A stretch of DNA of 64,000 nucleotides from an uncultured Alphaproteobacteria bacterium (GTDB taxonomy: Bacteria > Pseudomonadota > Alphaproteobacteria > SP197). The position numbers were made by a program, and so were the translations under genes. Position 1 is the stretch's first letter. Every line of letters begins with the position of its first letter. The notes beneath the pieces are model-generated. The model searched no databases. It was not told where the DNA came from and was given only the letters and a program-made list of their open reading frames with translations. The stretch is taken from NCBI GenBank assembly GCA_943787175.1, contig CALSLK010000016.1:34649-98648 (forward strand). The letters run 5' to 3'. Shown one piece after another: positions 1-16,137 of the stretch.

Positions 1-250
1 GCGATCCCAACACCTGGGGCGATGGTCTGGTTGCACAGGCCATGGCATCCATCACGTTCGTTAACGATTGATCTTAACCGACGCGGCGTTGCGCGTTTGA
101 CTACGCTTGCCCTGGAAGCTGATTGAATACCGATCCGTGCTTGCGGAGGCGGACCCATGTCTGCGGGGTTGTCGAATCGTCGGGCCGCATTCTCAGCAAG
201 CTGATGTGAGGCTCTTTGTGCTGCCAGTGCGAGACCCATTGGAACTTGGA

Positions 251-937
251 TCATGTGCGCACCTTGATAACTGCTACAACCAGATGAACGTTCGCAATGT
301 CCCTTGCCGCGAATTGTAACTCGCAAGCCGGATTGAACTGCTGGGCAATGATCTCTTGAGTTGTCCGGCGTAGCAGGCGCTTGATGTAGGCCTCTCCGTT
401 TTCCAGCTCAATAACGACGTCGTCGCCGAGACGTGGCGGGATGACCGGGTTTACGTATAGCAAATCGCCATGCCGCAGGACGGGTTCCTGGCTGTCTGAG
501 TTCATGTAGAGGGCATAGGCTGATCGCACACCCGACAGCATATGCAGGCGCGGCACATAGGAATCCACCAGCCCGTTGTCAAAGAACATACCGTCTTGCC
601 CGCCACGGGCATGCCCCATGATCGGGACGTCCGAAGGGCCATGCGCAGGCGGGGTGGGAAGAACCTCGCCAACCTCACGCTGGGGAGGTGACGGATCAAG
701 CCGACGTCCCGTTACCTGCGCAAGGCGCGAGAGCGTCCGCGTGCTCAGGACGTGTCGTGCTGAGGTATCGTTTAAAAATCGATTGAGGGTTGATGGCGAC
801 AGGCCGGCACGCCGTGCCAGTTCAGTCGGTGCCAATCCGGTTTCCATGACGAGTCGCCGCAAGTCTGCCCGAAGTGCATCCCGTTCGGTTGCGTTCGAGT
901 CGTGCGTTGACGTCGTAACTCCTGCAGCCTGGTCCAT
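251..937 (-). CDS. XRE-family HTH repressor with C-terminal S24 peptidase domain (CI/LexA-like)
   Basis: N-terminal HTH (ELARRAGLSPSTLNRF); C-terminal S24 region (YALYMNSDSQEPVLRHGDLLYV...AYIKRL). Divergent from the phage operon. Confidence 0.85.
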   Translation of the reverse strand: MDQAAGVTTSTHDSNATERDALRADLRRLVMETGLAPTELARRAGLSPSTLNRFLNDTSARHVLSTRTLSRLAQVTGRRLDPSPPQREVGEVLPTPPAHGPSDVPIMGHARGGQDGMFFDNGLVDSYVPRLHMLSGVRSAYALYMNSDSQEPVLRHGDLLYVNPVIPPRLGDDVVIELENGEAYIKRLLRRTTQEIIAQQFNPACELQFAARDIANVHLVVAVIKVRT

Positions 938-998
938 GTTTCCTCGCGCGCATTTTTTCGCTTGCTACAACCGCAATCTCCTCATATTTCATATGTAA

Positions 999-1013
999 GA
1001 ACAATTCAAGAAC
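999..1013. promoter_or_regulatory. Alphaproteobacterial LexA (SOS) box GAAC-N7-GAAC
   Basis: GAACAATTCAAGAAC matches the reverse complement of the GTTC-N7-GTTC consensus exactly. It lies in the ~90-bp divergent intergenic region, 14 nt upstream of the ATG at 1028. Confidence 0.7.
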
Positions 1014-1027
1014 ATACGGAGATCTTG

Positions 1028-1342
1028 ATGATGAGTAACTACAATCATGCAACCAGTGATGTTGCCGGGGGCAACGACGCCTTTGTTCAGATGTGGAATT
1101 CCGGCCGGGAGCTTGATGAGATTGCCATCCGATTCTCGATCTCCAAGAAGGCTGTGATCTCAAGAGCGGCCAAGTTGCGGCGAACCGGCGCAGAACTGGT
1201 CCGCCGCTCACCGAGGCGCGAATCGGAAACTGGCCAGATGCGGCGATGCCTGGGTTGCGGGCGATCCTTCATGAGTGCCCATGTTGGCAACCGTCTGTGC
1301 TGGTCCTGCAGTGATGATGAAGCCATGGGAGGGTTGATATGA
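1028..1342 (+). CDS. GcrA-like HTH regulator with C-terminal CxxC...CxxC zinc finger
   Basis: MWNSGRELDEIAIRFSISKKAVISRAAKL resembles the GcrA N-terminal HTH; CLGC...CWSC present. Start placed at ATG 1028 after GGAG. Confidence 0.6.
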   Translation: MMSNYNHATSDVAGGNDAFVQMWNSGRELDEIAIRFSISKKAVISRAAKLRRTGAELVRRSPRRESETGQMRRCLGCGRSFMSAHVGNRLCWSCSDDEAMGGLI

Positions 1343-1779
1343 TGGCATCACCTGCCTCCAGCAATGCTCCATACAGCAAGAAAAACGGACATATTCCAGG
1401 CGACCGGTGGACGGGAACCCTGATCCTGCTGCGGTTTGAGGAGGCGGCAGAAACCCTGAGGCGCCTGCCGCCTGCTGTGCGTCGCGGGAAGGTGACTTCC
1501 TGGCCCGACTATGTTCGAGGCGCTTCGGGGGAAGCGCCTCGCGTTCCGCTCCGCCTGATGGCGCGGCCCGAGGCAATCGACCGTCTGGATGAAACCATGA
1601 TCTGGCTGGGTTGGTTGCCCGGACTGACCGCGCGCATTGCCTGGGCGCGTGTCAACAAGGCAAGTTGGCGCCAGATCGCCACGCTAGCGGGCATGAGTCC
1701 GCGAACCTGTCAGAGGCGATTGACTGAGGGCTTGCTGGAGATCGCCGCACGGTTGAACAAGATGGGTGTGAGAGCATAA
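1339..1779 (+). CDS. DUF6362-like phage protein (putative late regulator)
   Basis: RFEEAAETLRRLP...WPDY...AIDRLDETMIWLGWL pattern and C-terminal HTH-like segment; 4-bp overlap with the upstream gene. Confidence 0.65.
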   Translation: MMASPASSNAPYSKKNGHIPGDRWTGTLILLRFEEAAETLRRLPPAVRRGKVTSWPDYVRGASGEAPRVPLRLMARPEAIDRLDETMIWLGWLPGLTARIAWARVNKASWRQIATLAGMSPRTCQRRLTEGLLEIAARLNKMGVRA

Positions 1780-2025
1780 ATGCGCATAGGTTTCTATTTT
1801 GTTCTTAACATGTGTGGCGCATTTTTGGTACAACTTTCATTAACGCTGGATCACCTGAAGACGGCTCTGAACTGACGGTCTTCGACGTACCAGCTGCATT
1901 CCATCAATCATGTCGTTCGCAACTGATCGCTGGCACTCCGCGAGGGGGGCCGGCGTCGTTGGTTTGCGCAAAGCGCCTGGAGAACAATCTTGGCAACACG
2001 GGAACTCCCGCACGCTGCAACGGAT

Positions 2026-2220
2026 ATGGCCGAAGTATCGGCTGAACTTGCAGACAAGATACTCGATACATTGGGCCAGGACTTCCAGGAGCATGGCGCG
2101 GCCGTTGTCACGCAACTGCGCGAGGGCGATCCAAAAAGCTATCTGACACTGTTGTGTCGGTTTGTCCCCACCGGGGGGCGTGATGGAGCGACCTCGGTCA
2201 CGGTTTCACACATCCATTGA
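2026..2220 (+). CDS. Putative terminase small subunit
   Basis: Small helical ORF (DFQEHGAAVVTQLREGDPKSYL) immediately upstream of TerL. Call is positional. Confidence 0.45.
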   Translation: MAEVSAELADKILDTLGQDFQEHGAAVVTQLREGDPKSYLTLLCRFVPTGGRDGATSVTVSHIH

Positions 2221-2234
2221 TCTAGCGGTGCGCG

Positions 2235-3677
2235 ATGGGTGACGCAATCACGCTGGCCTATCGGCCATCGGGTGAAACCCTGCGTTGTTTCCACGAGAAT
2301 GACGCCTTCATGCGGGTCGTTATCGGACCCCTGGGAAGCGGTAAGACGACAGCATGCTGCATGGAACTCTGGCGGCGGTTGATCACTCAGCGTCCCGGCC
2401 CCGACAAGGTCCGGCGCGCCCGTTGGCTTGTTGTCCGCAATACGTATCCGCAACTGGAAACCACAACCATTCCCGAGTGGCGTGGCATCTTTGATGATCG
2501 GTTCGGACGCTTTACGTTGGGTAAACCTCCAACACATCATGTGAACGTTGCCCTGGATGACGGCACGCGTGTTGAAGCCGACATCATCTTCATGGCGCTG
2601 GATGAACCTGATGGACCCGACAAGTTACGCGGCATGCAGCTTACCGGAATCTGGTTCAACGAACTGCGCGAGATCCCCAGAAGCGTCGTGACCATGGGAC
2701 TTGGCCGCGTAGGGCGGTTCCCGCCAAGACGTGATGGTGGGCCGACATGGTTTGGCGCGATATCGGATACCAACCCGTGTGATGAAGACCACTGGCTCTA
2801 TCGGGTAGCTGAGGTCAAACGGCCGGCGGGATGGCGGATTTTCCGGCAACCAGGCGGCGTTGTGCGTGACGGTGCAGAATGGCGCGACAATCTCCAGGCC
2901 GAAAACCTGGCGAACCTGCCACCGGCCTATTACGCCAACCAGATTGCTGGCGGCAGCGATGACTGGATCAAGGTGTTTCTGGCTGGAGAGTACGGCTTTG
3001 TCGTCGACGGCAAACCGGTGTTTCCTGAATACTCTGATCGTGTGCATTGCGGCGAAGTCGAACCGTTGGCCAACGTACCGGTCACGGTTGGCCTTGATTT
3101 TGGATTGTCACCTGCGGCTCTGTTCGCGCAACGTCTGCCTGATGGAAGGGTGCTGTGGTTTGATGAACTGGTGGCAACCGAGATCGGCGCGCTTCGGTTT
3201 GCGGCCCAGTTGAAAGCCCGGATCGCCGAGTGTTGGCCTGCTATGGACCTGCGCTTTGTCGGCGATCCCGCAGGTGATGCCCGGGTGCAGACCGATGAGC
3301 GTACGGTGTTCGAAATCTTGCGGGGACAGGGTTTGGCTGCGCGGGCTGCGCCGACCAATACATTTGCTTTGCGTAGGGAGGCGGTTGCCGCACCACTTTC
3401 ACGCATGATCGATGGCCACCCCGGGTTTGTCTTGCATCCACGGTGCGCAACCGCGCGCCGCGCCATGATGGGCGGATTTTGCTTTCGGCGTGTGCAATTG
3501 GCCGGACAAGTACGATTCCATGATGTCCCCGACAAGAATGCCTTCAGCCACATTGCTGATGCCGGGCAGTACGCCAACCTGGGTCTTGGAGAAGGCATGC
3601 AACGGCTTACCCAGCGGCCGACCGGGCGAACAGGCAACCTCGCGCTCAGCGAATACGACATTTACTCCGGGCTCTGA
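2235..3677 (+). CDS. Phage terminase large subunit
   Basis: Walker A GPLGSGKT, Walker B-like LRGMQLTGIWFNE, nuclease motifs GLDFGLSP and HIADAGQY; 480 aa, intact. Confidence 0.9.
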   Translation: MGDAITLAYRPSGETLRCFHENDAFMRVVIGPLGSGKTTACCMELWRRLITQRPGPDKVRRARWLVVRNTYPQLETTTIPEWRGIFDDRFGRFTLGKPPTHHVNVALDDGTRVEADIIFMALDEPDGPDKLRGMQLTGIWFNELREIPRSVVTMGLGRVGRFPPRRDGGPTWFGAISDTNPCDEDHWLYRVAEVKRPAGWRIFRQPGGVVRDGAEWRDNLQAENLANLPPAYYANQIAGGSDDWIKVFLAGEYGFVVDGKPVFPEYSDRVHCGEVEPLANVPVTVGLDFGLSPAALFAQRLPDGRVLWFDELVATEIGALRFAAQLKARIAECWPAMDLRFVGDPAGDARVQTDERTVFEILRGQGLAARAAPTNTFALRREAVAAPLSRMIDGHPGFVLHPRCATARRAMMGGFCFRRVQLAGQVRFHDVPDKNAFSHIADAGQYANLGLGEGMQRLTQRPTGRTGNLALSEYDIYSGL

Positions 3678-3712
3678 CGCCCAACCCATCCAACAGACCT
3701 GAGGAGAGAACC

Positions 3713-3913
3713 ATGAGCTTTCTGGTTCCCAAATCCAATCCTGTGCCACCGCCTCGGGTGCCACAGGTCAACGACGAAGAAGCGAACAGAGCCGCTGCCG
3801 AAGCACGTGCACGTGAGCGCAAACGGCGCGGCACTCTGGCGAGTGTCCTGACGAGCGGCCAGGGCGTGGCTTCGAATGCACCGGTACAAAGAAAAACCCT
3901 GCTGGGCGAATAG
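3713..3913 (+). CDS. Small phage virion-associated protein (66 aa)
   Basis: Strong RBS GAGGAG; Pro-rich N-terminus and RKTLLG C-terminus, typical of small genes between TerL and portal in podovirus-like phages. Confidence 0.6.
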   Translation: MSFLVPKSNPVPPPRVPQVNDEEANRAAAEARARERKRRGTLASVLTSGQGVASNAPVQRKTLLGE

Positions 3914-3941
3914 GCCAGCGTCGATATCTGGAGACAACACG

Positions 3942-4247
3942 ATGAGTATTGCGCGGACCACTGCTGATTTGACTGCAGAGAACAGCTTTAGCGATCCAAT
4001 CCGTCTAACCGGTCGATTCAACTTTCTGCTGACAGGAAGCTTCAGCGCAACGGCGCGTTTGCAGCGCTCGTTTGAAGATCCAGCCGGCACGCCGGCCTGG
4101 CACGACGTGGGTGATGCCTTTGGCAACACGGCCTATTCAGGCCCGGTAGCGTTTGTGGGCGATGAGCCCGAAGGTGCCTGGTACCGTTTCGGCGTTGAGG
4201 CTGGAGACTATACCTCTGGAACTATCGTAGGACGGTTGAGTCAATGA
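3942..4247 (+). CDS. Hypothetical phage protein (beta-rich, ~101 aa)
   Basis: RBS GGAG upstream of ATG 3942; ATGA overlap with the next gene. Confidence 0.6.
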   Translation: MSIARTTADLTAENSFSDPIRLTGRFNFLLTGSFSATARLQRSFEDPAGTPAWHDVGDAFGNTAYSGPVAFVGDEPEGAWYRFGVEAGDYTSGTIVGRLSQ

Positions 4248-5542
4248 GATTGCATCGCGCGGTCCGAGGTCTGCTGGAAGCCCTGGTAACACAAGGTAAA
4301 GAACCTGTTAACATGCGCGATGGTGCAGTGTTTTACGCGATGTCTGCACCTTCCACATCATTAGCCTTCTTACGAGAATCTACCGACAACATGTTTGATG
4401 CCGAAGGCATTCTGCGACCCCTTTCTGTGGATCAGGCCGGGTTTCCATACGCCCACGATAGTCAAACTTGGAGCCCGGCAGGTATACGCATCCTGGGCGC
4501 GCAGACCAATGCTCTACTGCACTCACGCGATGGGACTCATGCGGCTTGGAACGACACTACCGCGATCGTTACACGCGATCAGATCGGCATCGATGGAGTT
4601 GCCAATACAGCGACTATGGTTACTGATGACAGAACTTCAAGTGTGCGGCGTTTTTCGCAGGACGTTACGATTCCCGATGACTTCAATCCGGTTGCCATAT
4701 CGATTCTGGTTCGGCGTACGGGCGGCGTCCACCGCTATACAGGGTTCGAATTGCGTATGTATGGCGGTCCTGATGATCTGCGCCATCGCATCGTTGTGGA
4801 CATCGTGGCAGCGAGTTTCATTGCCCAGGACGGATTCACCGCGGGCTCAGCAACGCTAGATGTCTTGAGCGATGATTGGTTGCGGTTGGATATCACGGTA
4901 TCTAACGATCAGAGTGGAATAGGCACGGCCAACCTGCGTCTGTTTCCAGCTTACAATGCGGATGGTAGCGAGACGCCTGATGCCCAAGCCGTGGGATTTG
5001 CGGTGGTGGATTATCCTATGATGGCTGTGGGAAGTGATCACACCGGCTGGAGTTATGTTGAAACGCAGGGATCGGCTGGCACTCGCGCTGCCGACATGGC
5101 TGACGTTGATGTTTCAGCGATGGACCTATCGGACTTCAGCTTTGCTGTGGGGTGGAACGTGCAGGGCAACGAAGGTGAGTCTGCTCGAGTTTTGGAGTTC
5201 AATGACGGGACATCGGGCAATCAGGTCAACATCAGCCGATCTGGTGGGAATGTTACTTTGAATGTCGTGGCGGACGATATGGTTGAAGCCAGCCTTGTGT
5301 TGGGTTCCTGGGCGCCAGGACGCCACAAGGCGGTGGTGCGGATTGCACCTGATGACGTGGCAGGTTGCATGGAAGGCGGGGCGGTGGTGAAGGACACAAG
5401 TGTTGTTGTTCCTTCGGTCGACACCTTGCTTCTGGGGCGCTCGATAGGGGCGTCGTGGCTGAACAGCACGCTGCGAGGATATGCGATCTGGCCTGCTGCT
5501 CTGAGCGATGGAGCCTTGCAGGCGCAAAGTCTGCGTTCCTGA
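4244..5542 (+). CDS. Phage fibre/spike-like protein with carbohydrate-binding/LamG-like beta domains
   Basis: 432 aa, beta-rich. N-terminal FLRESTDNMFDAEGIL...GIRILGAQTNALLHS and GTRAAD patterns resemble phage head-spike/fibre proteins. Confidence 0.55.
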   Translation: MRLHRAVRGLLEALVTQGKEPVNMRDGAVFYAMSAPSTSLAFLRESTDNMFDAEGILRPLSVDQAGFPYAHDSQTWSPAGIRILGAQTNALLHSRDGTHAAWNDTTAIVTRDQIGIDGVANTATMVTDDRTSSVRRFSQDVTIPDDFNPVAISILVRRTGGVHRYTGFELRMYGGPDDLRHRIVVDIVAASFIAQDGFTAGSATLDVLSDDWLRLDITVSNDQSGIGTANLRLFPAYNADGSETPDAQAVGFAVVDYPMMAVGSDHTGWSYVETQGSAGTRAADMADVDVSAMDLSDFSFAVGWNVQGNEGESARVLEFNDGTSGNQVNISRSGGNVTLNVVADDMVEASLVLGSWAPGRHKAVVRIAPDDVAGCMEGGAVVKDTSVVVPSVDTLLLGRSIGASWLNSTLRGYAIWPAALSDGALQAQSLRS

Positions 5543-5615
5543 CCCAACCGGATTCATTTCATGAGAGAGGGTGCACGGGCCTGATGGCGCGTACGATCCC
5601 CTATGCGAGGTTTTA

Positions 5616-7280
5616 ATGACATCACTGGCAGACACTGTGCTGGCGCGCCAGCAGGAACTGGCGGCTGAGCGCTAGACGTGGGAGCACGCCTGGACCGACA
5701 TCGCCGATTTCGTGCTGCCGCGTCGCGCGAGCTTCACGAGTCAGCCGGAACCGGGTGCGGCGCGGGTGAAGGGTGGGCGTGTGTTTGATTCGACCGCGAT
5801 CCATGCCAACGAACTGCTGGCAGCAGGCCTGCACGGTATGCTGACCAACCCGGCGGAGCGCTGGTTTTCGCTGAAGCTGACGGGCGGTGGAGATCAGGAC
5901 GGGGCGGATGTGACACGCTGGCTTGAAGAGGTAGAGCGGCGCATGCAGAGCGTCTTTTCGAGCCCCACAAGCCGTTTTGCCCCGGCCATACACGAGCTTT
6001 ACCTGGACCTGGGCGCGTTCGGCACCGCAGCCATGTTTGTGGGCGAGCGCCTGGGCGAGGCGGGGCATGTGGCGCCGGGCGGAATTCTGTTCCGCACCTA
6101 TCACCTGGCCGAAATCTATCCCAGCGAAGGGGCGTTCGGGCAGGTCGATACGGTTTATCGCCGGTTCTCCTGGAGTGCACGCCAGATGGTGGAACGCTGG
6201 GGGCAAGAGCGCGTTAGCGAGGCTGTGCAGCGGGCCGTTTCGGCAAACCCTGAGAAAACCTTTGAGGTTGTCCATGGCGTGTTTCCCCGGCGTGAGCGAA
6301 CGGGCGCACCGGGCACCTGGAAACCCTGGGCCAGCGTCTATGTGGAGGCCGCCAGCCACCATGTGCTGGAAGATGGCGGGTTCGACGATTTTCCCTATCT
6401 GGTGCCGCGCTGGGCCAAGGTGCCAGGTGAACGCTTCGGACGCTCGCCTGCATGGACCATGCTGCCAGATATCAAGATGCTGAACGCGATGTCCAAGACC
6501 GTGATCAAGGCCGCCCAGAAGGTGGTTGATCCGCCGTTGCTGGTGGCTGATGACGGGGTGATCCAGCCCGTAACCACCGTACCGGGAGGCCTGAATTATG
6601 GCGGGGTTGATCCGGGCGGGCGCCAGTTGATCCAGCCGCTGACGACCGGCGCGCGCATTGATATTGGCCTGGATATGATGGAGCAGCGGCGCGGCGCGAT
6701 CCGTGATGCGTTCTTTGCCGCGCTGATGCAAACGCCCGAATCGCCCCAGCGCACCGCCACTCAAGTATTGCAGGAAACCGAGGAGCGCATGCGCCTGATG
6801 TCGCCTGTGCTGGGCCGCTTGCAGAGCGAACTGTTGGGCCCGCTGGTGCGCCGTGTGTTCAACCTTCTCAAAACCGCAGGCCAGCTTCCCGCACCGCCGC
6901 TTTCGGTGCTGGGGCGCAGGCTGGATGTGGATTACGTCTCACCCATTGTGCGTGCGCAACGGGCCAGCGAAATGCTGGGCGTGACGCGCACCTTTGAAGC
7001 CGTGGTGCCCTTTGCCCAGATGGAACCCGGCGTATGGGACATCTTTGACCTGGAAGCCCTGGCCCGACGCGCGGCCGATGTGAACGGCGTGCCTGCCGCC
7101 ACGCTGAGGAGCGAAGCCGAAGTGGCGCGCCGCCGCGCCGAACGTGAAGCAGAGGCAGTCCAGGCCGCCGATGCGCTGGCCCAACGCGCCGGTGCGCCCG
7201 GTGGCGGTGCTGAAATCCCGGGGGCAGCCCTGCCGCCGGGACTGGTGGGATTGATGGGAGGATTGCCCAATGTTGGATGA
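5616..7280 (+). pseudogene. T7-type portal (head-to-tail connector) with in-frame TAG at 5673-5675
   Basis: ATG 5616 is in frame with ORF 5712..7280 and reads MTSLADTVLARQQELAAER*TWEHAWTDIADFVLPRR. Portal motifs YLVPRWAKVPGERFGRSPA and TATQV...EERMRLMSPVLGRL present. Confidence 0.85.
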
Positions 7281-7542
7281 CGTGAGATTGCCGGGCTTTG
7301 CGCGCCGCCGTCGCCGGGCCGATTACCGCCAGCTTTTTGAAGGCCTGGAAGGCCGGCGTGTACTGGCCGATCTCTATTGCTTCTGCGGCATGGCAAGTCC
7401 CAGCTTTGTGCCGGGACGGCCCGATGAGACCGCCTTCAACGAAGGCAAGCGCCGCGTCTTCCTGCGCATTGCCGGGTTCATGGAGCTGGATGACGAACGT
7501 ATCCGCACCATGGCGGGCGATACCGGCGAAGAGATTGTTTGA
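7270..7542 (+). CDS. Bbp19-like phage head protein
   Basis: YRQLFEGLEGRRVLADL...TAFNEGKRRVFLRI, directly after the portal as in Bbp19-family genes. Confidence 0.75.
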   Translation: MLDDVRLPGFARRRRRADYRQLFEGLEGRRVLADLYCFCGMASPSFVPGRPDETAFNEGKRRVFLRIAGFMELDDERIRTMAGDTGEEIV

Positions 7543-7649
7543 TTGAGCCCTCAGGCCTGCGGTCTTTTTCTGAAACCGGCTGTTCACGAATGAACACAGG
7601 GGATCGGCTCGCTGGGCCGGACCCCTTCTGCTGTGCATGGAGTAAATCG

Positions 7650-8447
7650 ATGGCACGCAACAACGAGACGTTTGGGCGGGTGAGTACGCCTAGTGCCGGC
7701 GGGTCGGGTGCTGCGACCACGGTGTTTGGCGGCACGATCAACCCGGTGGCCCAGCAGCGGATGAACCAGCGCCAATTGGGTGGGCAACTGCGCGATCCCG
7801 GCGAACCGGGCCTGTTGGGGTCAGGAACCGCACGATCCCAACCAGATCATCATCGGGGATGACTGGCCCGGTGAGCCGCTGGATACGCCCCAGCCCCAGA
7901 CGCCGGAGATGGCGCGGGTCTCGGCCCTGCGCCACGCGGCGTTCCGCACCGGGGCGGAGCTGTCCCTGCTGTCGGGACTGGAGACGGTGAAGGCCCGGAC
8001 CTTCGGCAACCCTGATCTGGACGACAGCGAGGGCCGTCAGCCGGTTCCGCCAGAATGCCGCGTTGCTGACCCGTGATGCGGTGGACGGCATGGCCCGCGC
8101 GTTCGGCTCGCCCGAGGACGGGCTGGAGATGCCCACGCGCGCGGTGCTCGAAGACATCGTCGAAGGTGTGGCTTCGGATGGGGCGCGTACGCGTGCCCGT
8201 GCGCTGGAGGAGAAGGCGCTGGACGTCCTGGAAGCGGGTGCCGATGACCTGCTGGCACAGATCCGCAGCGCACCGGACCTTGCCGAGGGCTACGCCCATC
8301 ACCGATGTTGAGGGTGGCGCACATCACGTGCAGGTCTATCGCTCACCAGGTGCGTCGACCGACTTCGCGGTGATCTTTGACAAGATTGCGGGCGATTGGT
8401 GTGCGGTTTCCTCGATGGAATTGCCCAAGCTGGGTGAAGCAGCATGA
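7650..8447 (+). pseudogene. Hypothetical phage gene split over four frames
   Basis: Consecutive overlapping ORF pieces (7650..7862, 7780..8076, 8063..8311, distal part of 8073..8447) join into one ~265-aa frame with three frameshifts; RBS TGGAG before ATG 7650. Confidence 0.5.
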
Positions 8448-8719
8448 CGGATGCGACAGGGGGTGCCGCTGCGCTGATCGCCAGCGGCAACCTGGCCGTT
8501 GTTGCGCTCACCTTCATGGTCCTGTTGCTGGTCATTGCCGCGGCTGGACTGTGGCGTGCACTCCAAAAGACACAGGACGAGAAGACCGGCGTGTTCACCC
8601 AGAAATTCGAGGCGGACCTGCGGCAGGCCGAAGCCGACCGGGAGCAGGCCCAGGCGACCCGAGATCTGAGCCGGGCGATTGATCTCCTGGCCATCAAGGT
8701 GGAGGCAAGAACGTCATGA
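8444..8719 (+). CDS. Single-TM membrane protein with coiled coil (holin/spanin-like position)
   Basis: Hydrophobic LAVVALTFMVLLLVIAAAGLW followed by coiled coil; ATGA-coupled to neighbours. Confidence 0.55.
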   Translation: MTDATGGAAALIASGNLAVVALTFMVLLLVIAAAGLWRALQKTQDEKTGVFTQKFEADLRQAEADREQAQATRDLSRAIDLLAIKVEARTS

Positions 8720-8901
8720 TCTGGCCCTTTGATGTGACTCCGGCAGGCGGGCCAGGAGATTTCGATCGCAAGGCTCGAGATGCCCAGGAACGACGTGAAG
8801 CCGCACGCGATGAGCTGCGCCACGCCAATGACGGACTGCGCTTGTGCCTGAGTGAATTGTTGGTGCGATTAAGGGAGAACAACAGCCATGAATCTGCTTG
8901 A
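8716..8901 (+). CDS. Hypothetical coiled-coil protein (61 aa)
   Basis: Translationally coupled to the upstream gene (ATGA overlap). Confidence 0.5.
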   Translation: MIWPFDVTPAGGPGDFDRKARDAQERREAARDELRHANDGLRLCLSELLVRLRENNSHESA

Positions 8902-9304
8902 AGCTGTTTTCGGTTCGGGCCTTGTCTGGTACGGGCCGATTCTGTTCCTGGCGATTGCGACCATGTTTGGCTGACGACACGGGCTGTGTGGTGATCTGCG
9001 CCGCATGGGTTATGGCGACGGCATTAACCGGCTGCGCCTGGGCATCCTGTTTCTCTCTCTGGGCGTGGTGATTAATGCCACCTCCTGGGGGTTGGCTGAA
9101 CATTATCGCGCAACGGACCTGGAACATGCGGCCGGCGTTTTTGCCGGCCTGGCCTATGACCTGCGTCCGCTTGCACGATCGTCAATGGTGATCGGGTTGT
9201 TTGCCATGCTGACGGGGCTGAGTTCGCACAGGTTTGATTGGATATTCGCTGCAGTTGGAACTCTGGTGATCATGGCGCTGCATCGCCTTTGGGTGACACC
9301 ATGA
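8888..9304 (+). pseudogene. Multi-TM membrane protein with in-frame TGA at 8972-8974
   Basis: ATG 8888 is in frame with ORF 9005..9304: MNLLEAVFGSGLVWYGPILFLAIATMFG*RHGLCGDLRRMGYGDG...; TGA is probably a mutated TGG. Confidence 0.55.
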
Positions 9305-9852
9305 GCGAACGTCATGATGCACGCTTCCTCGCCGCGCTTGATATCGTATTGGCGCATGAGGGTGGCCACGCCAACGACCCCGATGATCCCGGTGGAGCGA
9401 CCAACTACGGCATCTCTTTGCGCTGGTTGCGCTCTTTGGGTGAACTCGAAGGCGACCTTGATGATGACGGGGATGTCGATGGGGAGGATATCCTGGGTCT
9501 GCGCCGAGAGGAAGCTGCGCGGTTTTATTACGAACACTGGTGGCAGCCACAGGGTTACGGGCAGTTTTCCTCAGATGCGGTCGCTGCCAAGACCTTTGAT
9601 CTCGCCATCAACATGGGGCCACGTGCGGCACATCGGATCCTGCAACGTGCCGTGCGTGCGGCCAGCGGGCAGGCGCTGATCGATGATGGTGTCATCGGCC
9701 CGAAAACCAGACTGGCTGTAGAGGCCTGCTCGGGTGGCCAGCTCACTGCGGCGATGAGATCCGAAGCCGCTGGCACATACAGGCTGATCGCAGTCGGCAA
9801 ACCCAGACTGAACAAATTCCTGCGCGGCTGGTTGAACCGCGCCTATTCCTGA
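9301..9852 (+). CDS. Glycoside hydrolase family 108 endolysin (TtsA/ZliS-like) with PG-binding C-terminus
   Basis: Catalytic motif HEGGHANDPDDPGGATNYGI, IDDGVIGPKT, and C-terminal KFLRGWLNR. Confidence 0.9.
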   Translation: MSERHDARFLAALDIVLAHEGGHANDPDDPGGATNYGISLRWLRSLGELEGDLDDDGDVDGEDILGLRREEAARFYYEHWWQPQGYGQFSSDAVAAKTFDLAINMGPRAAHRILQRAVRAASGQALIDDGVIGPKTRLAVEACSGGQLTAAMRSEAAGTYRLIAVGKPRLNKFLRGWLNRAYS

Positions 9853-9864
9853 AAGGAGAACGTG

Positions 9865-9987
9865 ATGGAGATGATGAAATCCTGGTGGCGTGAGATGCCT
9901 GCAAAATGGCGTGATCGCGTCACGAATTTGGCGATGTTTACCGTTGCCTTCCTGGCAACCGTGGTTGTTGTCGAGGTGCTGGCATGA
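9865..9987 (+). CDS. Small single-TM protein (40 aa), not in the ORF track
   Basis: RBS AAGGAG at ~9853; reads MEMMKSWWREMPAKWRDRVTNLAMFTVAFLATVVVVEVLA*; stop overlaps the holin ATG (ATGA). Confidence 0.6.
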   Translation: MEMMKSWWREMPAKWRDRVTNLAMFTVAFLATVVVVEVLA

Positions 9988-10388
9988 TCGCTGCCCTGCT
10001 GCCCCTGTTGGGAACGGTGCTCGACAAGGTGTTGCCGCGCATCGTTGGTGACAAGGACCAGGTCAACGCGATCAAGGCTGAGGTAACGTCTGCCCTGATC
10101 GCCCAGGAAGGTGAGTTACGCCAGGCCGCGGCCGACATCGTCAAAACCGAGGCGCTGGGTCATTCCTGGCTACAACGCAACTGGCGCCCGCTGTTGATGC
10201 TGACCATCGTCGCCATTGTTGCGAACAATTACCTGGTGGCGCCCTACGCGCAGGCTCTGTTTGGCGTGGGCATCGCGCTCGAACTTCCTGAGCGTCTGTG
10301 GGACCTGATGATGGTCGGTGTTGGCGGTTATGTCGTGGGGCGTTCGGTCGAACGGGGTATTGATCTCTGGCGTAAGGAAGAAAATTGA
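9984..10388 (+). CDS. 3TM-type holin (GTA_holin_3TM-like)
   Basis: EALGHSWLQRNWRPLLM and LWDLMMVGVGGYVVGRSVE family signatures. Confidence 0.85.
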   Translation: MIAALLPLLGTVLDKVLPRIVGDKDQVNAIKAEVTSALIAQEGELRQAAADIVKTEALGHSWLQRNWRPLLMLTIVAIVANNYLVAPYAQALFGVGIALELPERLWDLMMVGVGGYVVGRSVERGIDLWRKEEN

Positions 10389-10529
10389 ACCTGACTAAAG
10401 CACATCACGCTGGCATCGAATCGCCTTGTGAGTGATGCAAGCATGTGAAGATGCTCTTGCTCTATTTGGCAGAGCGAATTCACAAGATTGCTTGGTCCCA
10501 CAGGATGGGCCAAGCAATCTTGATCCGCT

Positions 10530-11048
10530 CTAAACGGTATCGGTGTCCGGGTTTTTGTCCTGGATGACAGGTTTGCTTGATGTTTCGACCAGCGCGACAT
10601 CGCCGCTGATGCGTCCGCCCTTGTCGACTTTCAGTTCACCATAACGGATAGATCCTGCGAGATCGCCGTCACCGCAAACTGTCAGGCATTCGCGGACGTG
10701 AAGGGTTCCCTCGAAACGCCCCCGGATCTCGGCGTTGGCGACATGCGCATCACCCTTCACGGAGCCACCAGCATCGATCCGCATGGTGGCTGCACGAATA
10801 GATGCTTCGACTTCACCCTCGACGATGACATCGCCCTGGGCATCGATTTCGCCCTTCAGGCGTGTTCCGCGTCCGATGACGAAGTCTGTCGGGCCGTCAT
10901 CGATCAAGGAATCCCTGGGCGGTTGCGAAGAGTTCGATCGGCCGGTGTCGGGAGTCGGATAGCGGTCCAGAATTGACTGGGTCTGTGTCGCGACGGGGGT
11001 TTTCGCCGGCGATTCGGCCGGTGTTTCTGACTTGCGGAGGTTGAGCAT
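10530..11048 (-). CDS. Bactofilin (polymer-forming cytoskeletal protein)
   Basis: FVIGRGTRLKGEIDAQGDVIVEGEVEA beta-helix repeats; start reassigned to MLNLRK. Confidence 0.85.
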   Translation of the reverse strand: MLNLRKSETPAESPAKTPVATQTQSILDRYPTPDTGRSNSSQPPRDSLIDDGPTDFVIGRGTRLKGEIDAQGDVIVEGEVEASIRAATMRIDAGGSVKGDAHVANAEIRGRFEGTLHVRECLTVCGDGDLAGSIRYGELKVDKGGRISGDVALVETSSKPVIQDKNPDTDTV

Positions 11049-11366
11049 GATGATCGTCCCTGGCTGGTTCCTGTTGCACGAGATAGCGACAGGGTTGGCC
11101 GGGGCTACTGGGAGCAAGGACGATCAGGGTCACCAATCCGTTCTGGGTGGCAACCTGGCCAATTCCCAGCACGGTGTCAGTGTCGTTCTGATTAGTCTTG
11201 CCTTGTCCGTTCATCATTCTTCCCCTGGTGCGGCAACGCGCTGCATCGTTTCGATGTCGATGCAGGCTTGCTGCCGTTCCCTGCGACCTTTGCCGCTGTG
11301 TTGCAGTCAAGGCGATGAAAGGGGCGCAACAGGGGTCGTGATGTGGTGATTGTGTGGCGTGTTGCC

Positions 11367-12269
11367 TCAAGGTGCCGGGTTGCCAGTTGATTCCGGTAGC
11401 GAAGGTTCTGGCTTGGTGGTCGCCTTGACCTTCCAGAGGTGAATGAAGCCGACGGACGCCAGAACGATGGCCCCACCGATCAGGACATAAGGCGTGAGGT
11501 GTTCGCCCAGGAACAGGACGCTTCCAATGATGCTGGTGACTGGCACCAACAGGATGAACGGAATGATCTGGTTCATTCGGTAGATGCCGATCAACCGGAA
11601 CCACAGGGCATAACCTGTTGCCGTCATGATGAGGGCCAGATAGGCGACTGCGACCCAGCCTCCCCAGCTTGCCGACTGCACCGCGGACCACTGGCCGTCC
11701 TCCACAATGAACGACGCGATCAGAAGCTGTGGTCCAGCGAAAGCCGAGAACCATGCGATAAGGCGTAACCCGCCGACCTGCCCGATCGATTTGATCAGGA
11801 TCTGGCCACCTGCCCAGATGATTCCGCCGGCAATGACCAGGATAAAGGGTAGGGGGTTGCTCTGGATTCGTGGCTCGCCGGCAATCAGGGCGACGCCGAG
11901 AATGGCAAACGCCATGGCAATCCATTGTTGCCAGGCTAGCTTGTCCTTGAAAAAGATGCCGGCAAAGAGCGAGACGAAGACGACTTCGAGCTGAACAATG
12001 AGAACAGCTGTGGAAGCGTCCATGCCGTTGAGACCGGTGAACTGAAGACTATAGGCCAGCATGCCGCCGACCAGGGCCGCCAGAAACAGCCGGCCTGCCT
12101 GGTCCCACATGGGTTTTACGAACCAGATGAGGACGAGTGCGGCGATGGAGAAGCGCATGCCCATGAGGAAGATGGGCGGGAACTGATCGAACGTGCCTTT
12201 GGCAACCGTAAATCCGGCACCCCAGATCATGGGAACCGTGATGGCAATAAGGAGGTCGAGTGGTTTCAT
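11367..12269 (-). CDS. DMT/EamA family transporter
   Basis: About ten TM segments in two EamA repeats. Confidence 0.85.
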   Translation of the reverse strand: MKPLDLLIAITVPMIWGAGFTVAKGTFDQFPPIFLMGMRFSIAALVLIWFVKPMWDQAGRLFLAALVGGMLAYSLQFTGLNGMDASTAVLIVQLEVVFVSLFAGIFFKDKLAWQQWIAMAFAILGVALIAGEPRIQSNPLPFILVIAGGIIWAGGQILIKSIGQVGGLRLIAWFSAFAGPQLLIASFIVEDGQWSAVQSASWGGWVAVAYLALIMTATGYALWFRLIGIYRMNQIIPFILLVPVTSIIGSVLFLGEHLTPYVLIGGAIVLASVGFIHLWKVKATTKPEPSLPESTGNPAP

Positions 12270-12373
12270 GGGCGGAAGCGCTCAAAGGGAATCCATTGGT
12301 GACGGGCATTGCTGCGACTGGCAAGGACAAAGCGAGGCTTGCTTGTCTGGCTGGCTGACGGCATCGTCCGCCC

Positions 12374-12820
12374 ATGCTGATGCTGACAACCATTCATGGC
12401 CTGATGACAGACGATGCGCTGCATGAGCGTCTTCATGGGTTGAGCCACAACGATGCCGTCGAGACAATCCGACTGGAGCGTCAAGATATGCAGCGCCACC
12501 GGCTTCGCGTGGAGACAGACAAGGGCACGATCTGTGCAATTGCGCTGCCACGTGACGTGTCCCTGGAAGACGGCGCCATACTGGAGATTGACGAGAACCG
12601 GGCCATTGTGGTGCGCGCGATCGAGGAGCGCTGGCTGGAACTGGTTCCACGTGACGCGGAGGCCGCACTTGAGCTTGGGTATCATGCTGGCAATCTTCAT
12701 TGGCGCGTTCAGTTCCGCGACGGACGTTTGGCAGTCGCGCTGGAAGGCCCGGAACAGGCCTATCTGGATCGTTTGACCATGTTTTTTGACGATGGACGTG
12801 CGCAGCGTGCCGATGGTTGA
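12374..12820 (+). CDS. ureE: Urease accessory protein UreE (no His-rich tail)
   Basis: RHRLRVETDKGT and ELGYHAGNLHW motifs. Confidence 0.8.
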   Translation: MLMLTTIHGLMTDDALHERLHGLSHNDAVETIRLERQDMQRHRLRVETDKGTICAIALPRDVSLEDGAILEIDENRAIVVRAIEERWLELVPRDAEAALELGYHAGNLHWRVQFRDGRLAVALEGPEQAYLDRLTMFFDDGRAQRADG

Positions 12821-13484
12821 TGCCGATAAACTCCTGAGGAGTCTGCAGATGGGGGACAGCAGTTTCCCCTCTGGCGGCTTTGCCTTTTCCTGGGGGCTCG
12901 AAACGCTGAAAACCGATGGCTTGGTAAGTGACAGGTCTGGTGTGGAGTCTTTTGCGCGCTCTCAACTGCGCTGGCGTTGGGCTACCGCCGACAGGCTGTT
13001 TCTTCGCAGGGCCGCAGATGCCAGGGATGTTGTGGAACTGGCTGAGCTGGATCGCGAAGTCGAGGTAATGACGCTTGCCAGGGAGCTGAGGGATGGCTCG
13101 CGGAGGGCAGGGCGCTCACTCCTGCGGGCCCATGAATCCATGGAGACGCCGGGTGTATCGGCATACAGAGCAGCAATCGCCGACGGTTCTGCGTTGGGAC
13201 ACCTGCCCGTTGCCCAAGGTCTTGTTTGGCATGGTATGGGCATGACGATCGATGAGATCGAGGCGGTTTCGGCCTATGCAATGGCAGCCGGTATTGCCCA
13301 GGCTGCCGTGCGACTTGCGCTGCTCGGACCGCTTGAAGCCCAGTCTATGCTTTCGATCCTGAGGAAAGATATGACGGAAGTGCTGGGGCAGAAGCCGCCG
13401 GTTCGTCCGTATGCATTCACGCCGGCGGCAGAGATTGCCGTGATGCGCCATGAGCGTGGCGATGCACGTCTATTTGCCAATTGA
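12786..13484 (+). CDS. ureF: Urease accessory protein UreF
   Basis: LQMGDSSFPSGGFAFSWGLET and MRHERGDARLFAN terminus; true start may be 12810. Confidence 0.85.
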   Translation: MTMDVRSVPMVDADKLLRSLQMGDSSFPSGGFAFSWGLETLKTDGLVSDRSGVESFARSQLRWRWATADRLFLRRAADARDVVELAELDREVEVMTLARELRDGSRRAGRSLLRAHESMETPGVSAYRAAIADGSALGHLPVAQGLVWHGMGMTIDEIEAVSAYAMAAGIAQAAVRLALLGPLEAQSMLSILRKDMTEVLGQKPPVRPYAFTPAAEIAVMRHERGDARLFAN

Positions 13485-13526
13485 TGCGCGGCAGGGTGAG
13501 TGGATTGCAGAGGGTATGAGCAAACG

Positions 13527-14150
13527 ATGAACAACAAACCAGCAAGCGCAGCACGTGTCGGCATTGGTGGGCCGGTCGGGTCCGGCAAGACTGCGTTGGT
13601 CGAGCAGGTGATTCCACGCTTTGCACGGCGCGGAACCCGTCTGGCTGTCATCACGAATGACTTGGTGACCAAAGAGGATGCCGAGCGCCTCAAACGCAGC
13701 GGGTTGATTGACCCGGAACGGGTTGTTGCTGTGGAAGCAGGTGCGTGTCCTCACACGGTCATTCGCGAGGACCCCACGCTCAACCTTGATGCCGCCGAAT
13801 TGCTGGAACTCAAGTTCGCACCGCTTGATCTGGTCCTGCTGGAATCGGGTGGGGACAATCTGGCTTCGACGTTTTCACTGGAGCTGGTCGACTACTGGAT
13901 GTTTGTGATCGACGTTGCCGGTGGCGGAGACATCCCGCGCAAACGCGGCCCCGGCGTTCTGCAATCGGACCTGCTGATCATCAACAAGTCGGACTTGGCG
14001 CCCCATGTCGGCGTTGACCTGGATCTGATGATTGCCGAGGCTGAGGCCGTCCGGGGCGGCAAGCCTGTGATCGTGACCAATTGCCACACGGGTGAGGGGG
14101 TCGATGCCATCATCGATCATGTCGCTCGTGATGTACTGTTCGACAGTTGA
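13527..14150 (+). CDS. ureG: Urease accessory GTPase UreG
   Basis: [12 protein letters not shown] metal site ([11 protein letters not shown]), ESGGDNL, INKSDL. Confidence 0.9.
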
Positions 14151-14962
14151 TGGCAGCCGTTGAGCAGATCAGTGAGGCGCGGCCACAGCTTGGGCTGACG
14201 TTCGCCCATGCGCCTTCGGGTGAGACCTATCTGAAACGTCAGTATACCCGCTTCCCCTTTCATGTGACCCAGCCATTCCATCTGGACGGGGAGGTTTCTG
14301 GCGAAGCAACCGTGATTCTCCAGGCGTTGGGGGCGGGGCTTGTCCAGGGTGATCGTATTGCCATGGATGTGCTTGTGGAATCCGGTGCGTGTGCGCATCT
14401 GACGACGCAGGGATCAACGGTTGCCCATGCCATGCCCGAAGGGAGAGCGGAACAAGATGCGCGTGTGGTCGTCTGTGAAGACGCTACGCTTCATTATCTG
14501 CCACGCCCCATGATCCTGTTTGCTGATGCCGAAGTGACCACGCGGCTGGAAATCACGGTGCAAGAAGGCGCCCGCGTGCTGTGGTGTGACGGTTATCTGG
14601 CCCACGATGCTGCAGGGAATGGCGAGCGTTTCACAAGACTCGACGCGGAAGCGGTGTTGTACGATGCCTCAGGAAAAATACTGGCGCTTGACCGTTTTGT
14701 GGTCGATGGTGCAACGCTTGATGCGCCCGGCGTGATGGCAGGCTTTCCCGTGCACGCTGGATTTGGGTGCCATGGTTATTGCGAACCAACAGTCATCGTG
14801 GAAGAGCTCGCTGCAGCGATGTTGGATGATGACGCTATCTATCTTGGCGTTTCGGAGCTGCCCGATGAACAGGGGTTGTTCGGGCGCATTCTGGCCAGAG
14901 ATGGTGTGGCTCTGAGACGGGCCATGTCGCTTGTCAGAGAGATTGTCGCAGCGTCGCCTTAA
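14147..14962 (+). CDS. ureD: Urease accessory protein UreD/UreH
   Basis: AGLVQGDRI and HLTTQGST motifs; follows ureG. Confidence 0.8.
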
Positions 14963-16137
14963 CTCAACTCACGCATGGCATCATCGAGACCTTCAAGGGT
15001 AAGAGGATACATGCGGCCATCCATGATCTCGTGAACCATGCCTATGGAGCCGGTGTAGCGCCAGCGCTCCTGCGGCACGGGATTGAGCCAGACGGCTTTG
15101 GGATAGACCTGCAGGACGCGGCGCAGCCATGTCTCTCCGGATTCCTCATTGAAGTGTTCAACGCTGCCACCGGGTACGGCAATCTCGTAGGGGCTCATGG
15201 ACGCATCACCGACCAGCACCAACTTGTAGTCACTGGGATAGGTGTGGAGCACTTCCCAGGTTGGTGTGGTTTGGCGATGACGGCGAATGTTCTCGCGCCA
15301 GACGTTTTCGTAGAGGCAGTTATGGAAGTACCAGGCTTCCAGATGCTTGAACTCTGAGCGGGCGGCAGAAAACAGTTCTTCGCAGGCGCGGATGTGCCAG
15401 TCCATGGAGCCGCCGATATCGAGCATCAGCAAGAGTTTCACCGCGTTGTGGCGTTCGGCGACCATCTTGAGGTCGAGCCAGCCTGCATTTTTGGCTGTCG
15501 AGTTGATGGTGTCGTCGATGTCGAGTTCGGTCGCTGCACCTTCGCGGGCAAATCGGCGCAGGCGGCGCAGGGCAACCTTGATGTTGCGCGTGTTGATTTC
15601 AACTTCGCCGTCAAGATCCTTGAACTCCCGCTTGTCCCAGACCTTCACGGCCGAGAAATTCCGGTTGCCGTCCTGGCCGATACGCACGCCTTCGGGATTG
15701 TAGCCATAGGCTCCGAACGGTGATGTTCCGGCGGTTCCGATCCATTTGGAGCCGCCCTGATGGCGCTTCTCCTGTTCCTCCATGCGCTGTTTCAGCGTCT
15801 CCATGAGCTTTTCCCAGCCGCCCATGGCTTCGATGGCTTCTTTCTCTTCGTCGGAAAGATTGAGCTCAGCCAGCTTCTTCAACCACTCCTCGGGAATCTC
15901 GGCTGTAGTCTCTTCGCCTTCGGGTTTTTCGAGGCCACGGAAGACATGCGCAAAGACGCGGTCAAAGCGATCCAGGTGTCGCTCGTCCTTCACCAGTGCC
16001 GTGCGGGCGAGATAGTAGAAGTCGTCGACGGATTGATCCGCGACACCGGCCTGCGTTGCCGCAAGCAGGTCGAGATATTCGCGCAGGCTGACGGGAACGC
16101 CGGCTTCCTTCAGTTCCAGGAACAGTCCGGTAAACAT
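14959..16137 (-). CDS. VWA-domain protein (CoxE-like)
   Basis: HQGGSKWIGTAGTSPFG and MIDAS-like LDIGGSM. Confidence 0.85.
   Translation of the reverse strand: MFTGLFLELKEAGVPVSLREYLDLLAATQAGVADQSVDDFYYLARTALVKDERHLDRFDRVFAHVFRGLEKPEGEETTAEIPEEWLKKLAELNLSDEEKEAIEAMGGWEKLMETLKQRMEEQEKRHQGGSKWIGTAGTSPFGAYGYNPEGVRIGQDGNRNFSAVKVWDKREFKDLDGEVEINTRNIKVALRRLRRFAREGAATELDIDDTINSTAKNAGWLDLKMVAERHNAVKLLLMLDIGGSMDWHIRACEELFSAARSEFKHLEAWYFHNCLYENVWRENIRRHRQTTPTWEVLHTYPSDYKLVLVGDASMSPYEIAVPGGSVEHFNEESGETWLRRVLQVYPKAVWLNPVPQERWRYTGSIGMVHEIMDGRMYPLTLEGLDDAMRELS

Follow-up and report, generated by a model that had tools for sequence, protein, structure and literature searches.

Gene content of the element

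The window analyzed here (64,000 nt; C16:34649–98648) lies in a 3.9-Mb alphaproteobacterial assembly of 38 contigs that is about 92% complete (genome G000). At 72–10388 it holds a phage-like element of about 10 kb, which is flanked by fecR and alkZ genes on the left and a bactofilin gene on the right. The element contained 17 open reading frames (ORFs), tightly packed with overlapping stops and starts and all open in clean assemblies of the species. The comparisons covered a family set of 33 genomes, with 23 genomes in genus g1. Among the relatives named below, G018 and G020 belong to g1 and G027 to genus g2. The features are as follows (HTH, helix-turn-helix; TM, transmembrane).

72–250, no strand: left boundary, a non-coding spacer from the end of the fecR-like gene (71) to the repressor stop codon
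251–937, minus: CI/LexA-type repressor, 228 aa; HTH_31/HTH_3 at residues 22–81 and Peptidase_S24 at 105–212
938–1027, no strand: divergent switch region, 90 nt, conserved in G018, G020 and G027; LexA box at 999–1013
1028–1342, plus: first operon gene, 104 aa; N-terminal HTH-like segment and CxxC...CxxC zinc ribbon; phrog_13335
1339–1779, plus: DUF6362 protein, 146 aa, from the family scan; C-terminus sigma-70 region-4-like or HTH
1990–2220, plus: small terminase (TerS) candidate, from its position and its homology to the same ORF in relatives
2235–3677, plus: large terminase TerL, 480 aa, intact; Terminase_6N, phrog_2; Walker A motif GPLGSGKT
3713–3913, plus: 66-aa protein (p66); phrog_831; kept after TerL in relatives
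3942–4247, plus: p101, a small all-beta protein, 68–70% identical to G027-type elements and missing from G020
4244–5542, plus: p432, two tandem concanavalin-A-like (laminin-G-like) beta-sandwich domains in the structure model
5712–7280, plus: T7/HTVC010P-type portal (head-tail connector), 522 aa, intact; PF12236
7270–7542, plus: Bbp19-like protein, 90 aa, from the family scan
7650–8311, plus: virion-protein stump, 219 codons, from homology to a 680-aa gene of G020
8297–8443, no strand: deletion scar, from the comparison with G020
8444–9304, plus: three small genes, p91, p61 and p99
9301–9852, plus: endolysin, 183 aa; GH108 muramidase and PG_binding_3
9865–9987, plus: p40, a single-TM peptide, overlapping the holin start
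9984–10388, plus: three-TM holin, 134 aa; PF11351 GTA_holin_3TM, phrog_3427
10530–11117, minus: bactofilin, from the family scan

The gene list of the original prediction, which was drawn from the sequence alone, was mostly borne out. Family scans confirmed the repressor, the DUF6362 protein, TerL, the small gene, the portal, the Bbp19-like protein, the endolysin and the holin, and the two beta-rich genes of that list correspond to p101 and p432. The gene it called GcrA-like is a real ORF (104 aa, starting at the ATG at 1028), but this name reflected a resemblance in motifs, and the protein had no Pfam match. The TerS that it listed could be placed by position and by homology to the ORF of relatives, but had no family match.

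The repressor has the layout of an autocleavable CI/LexA-type protein, with the HTH domain N-terminal and the S24 domain C-terminal, as judged at the level of domains rather than of catalytic residues. TerL was full length relative to the copies in relatives. The portal matched PF12236 with an E value of 2.5e-133 over profile positions 29–487 of 489, and phrog_332 with 3e-129. The DUF6362 protein is likely a late-gene regulator. In the lysis region, p91 has one N-terminal TM segment and a coiled coil and is spanin-like, and p99 has three hydrophobic segments.

The structure of p432 was predicted with high confidence (pLDDT, the predicted local distance difference test score, 91.9) as two concanavalin-A-like sandwiches. 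The best structural matches were phage tail-fibre and baseplate-fibre proteins. By this model, p432 is a protein of the tail-fibre or receptor-binding type. It had been considered as a hidden capsid protein, and this was ruled out by the confident two-domain lectin model resembling phage tail fibres. The p432 family counted 2734 representatives at E<=0.001, double concanavalin-A-like lectins of about 400 aa, which occur commonly among phages, usually without an N-terminal fibre shaft. Pfam annotation was absent among the few indexed matches.

Single-base insertions in this assembly

The original prediction had described nonsense lesions in the element. These were accounted for by three extra single bases, each in a short homopolymer (T at 2204, G at 7817 and G at 8031), which were private to the assembly of the window; the four other assemblies of the species aligned across these positions lack them. 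In the other assemblies, TerS is 83 aa long and overlaps the start of TerL; with the inserted T at 2204, 76 aa of it remain in the window. Likewise, the stump at 7650–8311 is one open frame of 219 codons that was broken only in the window, by the two extra G residues. The prediction had given this gene as an unknown gene at 7650–8447; it is a truncated ORF that ends at 8311.

The recA gene of the same assembly (G000:C8:131255–132042) was also split, into four frame pieces with internal stops. This suggested that the insertions at 2204, 7817 and 8031 are probably assembly errors. On the other hand, all five differences from the best-matching assembly lay within the element, against none in 10 kb of flanking sequence, and true strain-specific frameshifts are a possible alternative. 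Since single-base indel errors reach even recA in this assembly, frameshift "lesions" need a second assembly before any biological reading. At least 19 contigs represent this species in assemblies. In ten places, taken from different samples, the gene order was the same at 99.85–100% identity.

A deletion between the portal block and the lysis cassette

The congener G020, a near-complete genome in two contigs, carries a repressor-to-holin cluster of 18 kb. Its homologs of the repressor, the 104-aa protein, the DUF6362 protein, TerS, TerL, p66, the portal, the Bbp19-like protein and the holin were 66–85% identical in amino acid sequence to those of G000. Between the Bbp19-like gene and the holin, G020 encodes a 680-aa protein with weak GH108/PG_binding_3 signals at its C-terminus, an ankyrin protein, a scaffold-like protein (phrog_3742), a major head protein (phrog_3437, E 3e-87), a decoration-type protein (phrog_486), tail tubular proteins A (phrog_394) and B (phrog_376, E 2e-213), an acetyltransferase-like internal virion protein and a fibre.

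The window lacks this series. Positions 7885–8296 matched solely residues 32–174 of the 680-aa protein, and the stump ORF ended four codons past the point at which similarity stopped (EGYA|HHRC*). The counterparts in G020 of the two ends of the scar (8297 and 8443) stand about 11.5 kb apart. A 219-codon stump in place of a 680-aa gene, with about 11.5 kb gone relative to an intact homolog at the same site, is what defines a defective prophage.

Two IMG/VR contigs of the G027 type filled in the region that G020 lacks. They carry p101 and p432 between TerL and the portal, followed by a 650-aa homolog of the 680-aa protein, the scaffold and the capsid gene, where both contigs end. Because p101 and p432 occur there together with the downstream virion genes, the window holds a deletion derivative of that type.

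These fuller copies measure at least 18 kb, and the gene order pooled from them was: repressor, switch, 104-aa regulator, DUF6362 protein, TerS, TerL, p66, p101, p432, portal, Bbp19-like protein, 650–680-aa virion protein, scaffold, major head protein, decoration protein, tail tubes A and B, internal protein, fibre and lysis genes. No one copy is complete, as p101 and p432 are missing from G020 and the G027-type contigs end at the capsid.

The junction between the stump and p91 was spanned by seven of the ten other assemblies examined, and all seven had the deletion, at 99.85–99.96% identity to the window. The deletion therefore looks fixed in the species.

The original prediction had recognized neither a capsid, a scaffold or a tail tube nor genes for replication or an integrase in the element, and scans of the element and its flanks agreed. 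A major head protein with a scaffold beside the portal, and tail tubes A and B, were found in G020 (head and scaffold also in the G027-type contigs), and in neither the window nor the rest of the assembly. A tblastn search of the whole assembly with the capsid, scaffold, tail-tube and fibre proteins of G020 found no homolog. The HK97-type capsid family PF05065 gave 0 matches in the genome, with a positive control in Caulobacter, and GTA_TIM (g15-type) also gave 0.

The site in related genomes

Full, partial or minimal remnants occupied the site between alkZ and bactofilin in at least eight species of two genera. The copies compared were as follows.

G000 (g1): 10-kb copy with the internal deletion
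G007 and G014 (g1): both flanks as in G000; about 0.7 kb remains, with repressor codons ~57–228 fused to holin codons 79–134
G018 (g1): both flanks shared; repressor with five internal stops, switch, frameshifted tail-tube-B pseudogene, p40 and holin
G020 (g1): 18-kb cluster; right flank shared, left flank rearranged
G027 (g2): layout as in G000, immediately beside alkZ; the contig stops after the Bbp19-like gene
G023 and G030 (g2): holin codons 79–end joined to repressor codons 144–228, between bactofilin and alkZ
G029 (g4): larger relative (at least 30 kb) at a different site

TerL was present in 5 of the 33 family genomes and portal homologs were likewise few; occupancy of the site was much wider. 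No trace of the element was found in 18 of the 23 genomes of the genus.

Where the element was present, the divergence of its genes tracked that of the flanks. Against G007, amino acid identities were 87–93% in the element and 85–95% in the flanks. Against G027, they were mostly 59–79% in the element (TerS 40%, p432 36%) and 57–73% in the flanks. The TerL/portal tree grouped G000 with G020, then G027, then G029, in agreement with host taxonomy.

No integrase or replication gene was found right of the holin in G020, or in the G027-type element up to the capsid gene.

Several further features of these copies were recorded. In G018 (L020, 7501–8457), the tail-tube-B pseudogene continues in frame into an unrelated segment (RHLNKKSGGKASYRGLGSIDFLAAARS...) without a Pfam match, which may be a fragment of the nucleoside triphosphatase of another mobile element. 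In G020 (G020:C1, L015, 288951–292420), a 460-bp direct repeat, 99.1% identical, spans the 3' part of the repressor gene and flanks a 2.5-kb island of lower GC with an XcyI-like restriction enzyme and an N6/N4 methylase. A second candidate restriction-modification pair, a C5 methylase and a 263-aa ORF, lies right of the holin of G020. In G029 (G029:C20, L018/L019, 3279–33173), TerL, portal, Bbp19, scaffold, capsid, tube and fibre genes are spaced by several inserted blocks; this copy is a candidate intact prophage of the lineage.

A LexA box in the switch region

A GAAC-N7-GAAC box was found at 999–1013, upstream of the first operon gene and about 15 nt ahead of its ribosome-binding site. This is the alphaproteobacterial LexA box (GTTC-N7-GTTC) that marks members of the SOS regulon by its presence in the promoter region. 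It occupied the same aligned position in G000, G018 and G020, and had one mismatch in G027. The motif occurred at 114 sites in the genome, for which about 0.003 would be expected by chance in the 90-nt switch region.

The same motif was found upstream of recA and lexA of this genome. Because of this and the conservation of the box across species, host LexA is a credible second repressor, as read from the operator sequence, beside the S24 repressor of the element itself.

Interpretation of the 10-kb copy

We interpreted window 72–10388 as, probably, a defective copy, carrying an internal deletion, of a temperate podovirus-type element whose portal and tail tubes are HTVC010P/T7-like. This interpretation was based on the fuller homologous copies, the stump at the junction, the lack of capsid and tail genes in the genome, the presence of the deletion in all assemblies that span the junction, the stages of erosion in neighbouring species, the lack of an integrase or replication gene and the credible LexA box. 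The original prediction had offered a decayed prophage as one of its readings. This reading was supported, but the decay consists of one large internal deletion rather than of nonsense lesions.

In this species, a single deletion of about 11 kb or more removed everything from codon ~216 of the virion-protein gene through to the fibre, and left intact the divergent switch, the block of packaging genes and portal, and the lysis cassette. The operon would be silenced both by the S24 repressor that the element encodes and by LexA of the host at the GAAC-N7-GAAC box. DNA damage would derepress it, and the sole outcome would be expression of terminase, portal, holin and endolysin. Particle building, replication and self-mobility would be beyond the capacity of the 10-kb copy.

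Several observations weighed against such a simple picture. The 17 remaining ORFs are all intact in the species and tightly packed. At about 92% completeness of the genome, a capsid locus could in principle lie in the missing part. The lysis genes p91, p61, p99 and endolysin of G000 are lacking in G020, and the two copies are mosaic relatives rather than simple parent and derivative. In addition, amino acid changes specific to G000 and to G020 numbered 41 and 37 in TerL, 22 and 31 in the portal, and 21 and 31 in the repressor. As the changes in G000 were not more numerous than those in G020, simple neutral decay was not demonstrated.

A rival reading is a domesticated remnant, in which the repressor-switch-lysis part, possibly with terminase and portal, would be under selection, perhaps for immunity to related phages or for SOS-triggered altruistic lysis or release. 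All 17 ORFs were intact in each clean assembly, rates were not accelerated relative to G020, and the LexA box and switch were conserved across species. The repressor and holin fragments of smaller remnants had ratios of nonsynonymous to synonymous substitution (dN/dS) of 0.02–0.16, and those in g2 had diverged less in nucleotide sequence than the flanking genes had. Yet closely related species have lost nearly the whole element (G007, G014) or keep pseudogenes (G018), most of the genus has no trace of it, and nothing indicated a use for terminase and portal without a capsid. Differences between assemblies were also denser inside the element than in the flanks (13 versus 4), as expected from decay, as are the successive stages of erosion in neighbours and the truncation of the stump gene. 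We regarded domestication as unlikely. Pairwise dN/dS was low throughout (0.05–0.25), with synonymous sites saturated (dS 1–3), G+C content at third codon positions differing strongly between genomes and most of each path predating the deletion. The surviving ORFs may be intact because little time, at the prevailing mutation rate, has passed since the deletion, or because the repressor-lysis part is still useful. We treated the remnant as a defective prophage whose repressor and lysis part may still be under selection.

The original prediction had also raised a helper-dependent satellite and a split gene transfer agent (GTA). As a satellite, the element would use its own TerS/TerL, portal, p432 receptor-binding protein and lysis genes, and would borrow capsid and tail from an infecting relative. 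Its packaging genes, portal and fibre-like protein are indeed intact, and complete elements related to it are in circulation within this bacterial family (G029 and the IMG/VR contigs). Satellites of the phage-inducible chromosomal island (PICI), capsid-forming PICI (cf-PICI) and P4-like types have, on the other hand, their own integrase and replication module, and no integrase, excisionase, primase or replication initiator was found among the 17 ORFs. The genome has no helper prophage with a matching capsid, and the empty site and circular junction of the species gave 0 matches in public contigs, where a control for the occupied site also gave 0. The visible scar within a gene accounts for the missing genes and looks accidental rather than designed, and we considered a satellite very improbable. 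A split GTA, of which this module would be the packaging and lysis half with head and tail genes elsewhere, was suggested by the GTA-like traits that the prediction had listed and that the analysis upheld: no integrase or replication gene, SOS control (from the LexA box) and one chromosomal site kept across two genera. The holin family PF11351 is, moreover, named after the release holin of the Rhodobacter capsulatus GTA (RcGTA). The search of the assembly for an orphan capsid/tail locus, however, found neither homologs of the capsid, scaffold, tail-tube and fibre proteins nor an HK97 capsid or GTA_TIM; relatives carry their structural genes within this same cluster; and the element is missing or eroded in most of the genus, with other genomes holding remnants or nothing, unlike the conservation across a host clade that characterizes RcGTA. 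A split GTA was thereby largely refuted and is scarcely credible for this locus. By its own criteria, the original prediction would have been refuted by absence of the locus from close relatives or strong mosaicism, by relaxed dN/dS, or by an integrase and replication genes just left of the window. The outcome was mixed: no integrase lies to the left, whereas close relatives lacked the locus or carried eroded remnants and the copies were mosaic, which fits decay.

Shared breakpoints of the minimal remnants

The four minimal remnants, from two genera (G007, L021; G014, L022; G030, L051; G023, L052), shared the holin breakpoint to the nucleotide, at codon 79 (nt 10221). In the window, the breakpoints correspond to 767/768 and 10220/10221. 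The repressor-holin junctions of G007 and G014 agreed to within one nucleotide, and these two species are not sisters: the tree based on flank identities was ((G000,G007),G018), with G014, G020 and G021 outside.

The g2 remnants (G023 and G030) had a different repressor breakpoint, exactly at a Met codon, leaving an ORF of 84 aa. Their holin fragment starts TCGCCAACAAC. In public data, ORFs of exactly 84 aa were found at 71–100% identity. The g2 fragments were 91–94% identical at the nucleotide level, against 81–88% for the flanks, and the dN/dS of 0.02–0.16 given above was that of the repressor and holin fragments of the g1 remnants. The holin fragment of the remnants had no conserved start codon.

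Random deletion or erosion does not predict shared breakpoints. The options are repeated precise excision by an unseen recombinase, or old deletion alleles into which homologous recombination with related elements later restored the missing part. No recombinase was found in any copy examined. Searches of metagenome contigs of the Joint Genome Institute (JGI; empty-site and circle junctions) and of IMG/VR (circle junction) gave 0 matches, as did the occupied-site control, which was run in IMG/VR only.

Under the first option, the interior, from repressor codon 56 (or 143 in g2) to holin codon 78, would be a unit excised, and perhaps reinserted, by a precise site-specific reaction without a recognizable recombinase. 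When the element is integrated, its own repressor and holin genes would then be completed by the 3' halves of these genes that reside in the host. This would explain the common junction of G007 and G014, the same holin breakpoint with a different repressor breakpoint in g2, and the coding-like evolution of fragments without a start codon. It would also explain why sister species differ in occupancy and why an integrase was found in no copy. In a related reading, the 18-kb copy of G020, which has the LexA box and no integrase or replication gene, would be a podovirus-derived GTA. Precise excision seemed to us quite improbable, and the same low estimate covers the two readings jointly. If the breakpoint does reflect a real recombination reaction, it would be a new route for a tailed-phage-like element into and out of the chromosome.

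Comparison with known systems

The closest cultured relatives by the portal were the HTVC010P-type pelagiphages (44% identity over 89% of the protein), which are temperate/lytic podoviruses of SAR11 (Du et al. 2021, PMC8477408). HTVC010P has the same local order of a small gene, TerL, small genes, portal, a ~78-aa gene at the position of Bbp19, a putative scaffold, major head protein, tail proteins and endolysin. In the G000 copy, p101 and p432 are additional genes between TerL and the portal. Phages of this type are 34–36 kb long with capsid and tail genes, whereas the G000 copy is 10 kb long and has no capsid, scaffold or tail tube, in a comparison restricted to these genes.

Defective (cryptic, "grounded") prophages resemble the element in that phage genes are fixed at a chromosomal site, essential functions are deleted, the repressor and lysis cassette are kept, and relatives show varied stages of erosion. 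Unlike them, no species' copy was seen with an integrase, one site is used across two genera, and the four minimal remnants have a common breakpoint that is exact to the nucleotide.

RcGTA-type agents share with it the lack of integrase and replication genes, the LexA-linked SOS box, the PF11351 holin and a chromosomal locus inherited with its flanks, in which the divergence of the element tracks that of the flanks. They differ in that the portal here is of the T7 type (PF12236) rather than the HK97-cluster type, the element has its own CI-type repressor, the genome has no capsid or GTA_TIM, and the element is lost or eroded in most relatives. PICIs, including capsid-forming ones, are likewise compact islands with terminase and portal and an incomplete virion set, but the element has no integrase, no replication module and, in comparison with cf-PICIs, no capsid gene, and its gaps are explained by the deletion scar.

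The module alone is ordinary, a prophage stripped of its virion genes, and surveys should score it neither as a GTA nor as a satellite; the family name "GTA holin" is no evidence for a GTA. The lineage is less ordinary: it has a T7-type portal, lacks integrase and replication genes, occupies one and the same alkZ | bactofilin site in two genera, carries an operator for host LexA that is conserved, and shows a reproducible breakpoint in its minimal remnants. It appears as a somewhat unusual variant of the defective podovirus-type prophage.

Flanking regions

To the left of the element lie a fecR-like gene, which ends at 71, an alkZ-like gene, a 168-aa ORF, a short-chain dehydrogenase/reductase gene, a class-I lysS and a helicase gene. 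The bactofilin gene, on the minus strand, lies 140 bp past the right end.

No integrase or replication gene was found in the element or its flanks (20 kb leftwards and to the right), no tRNA was found in the flanks, and no attachment (att)-like direct repeats were detected at the ends of the element; the integrase and att repeats of a temperate prophage of the Campbell type were both lacking. Rfam gave no match for structured RNAs, and PADLOC detected nothing of defence systems beyond one weak short match. A sigma-70 promoter scan found zero sites, with a consensus that is poorly suited to an alphaproteobacterium, and the count of terminators was at background level.

Between the holin and bactofilin genes, at 10396–10552, lies a dispersed repeat of about 135–157 nt with a 16-nt hairpin inside (10483–10522). 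At least seven further copies were found, on contigs C3, C4, C5, C11, C22, C24 and C27, and copies also occur in G007 and G021. It looks like a repetitive extragenic palindromic (REP)-like element or a miniature inverted-repeat transposable element (MITE)-like element. To the right of bactofilin (11367–15500) are genes for an EamA-family transporter and the urease accessory proteins ureE, ureF, ureG-like and ureD, a block that is syntenic in g1 and g2.

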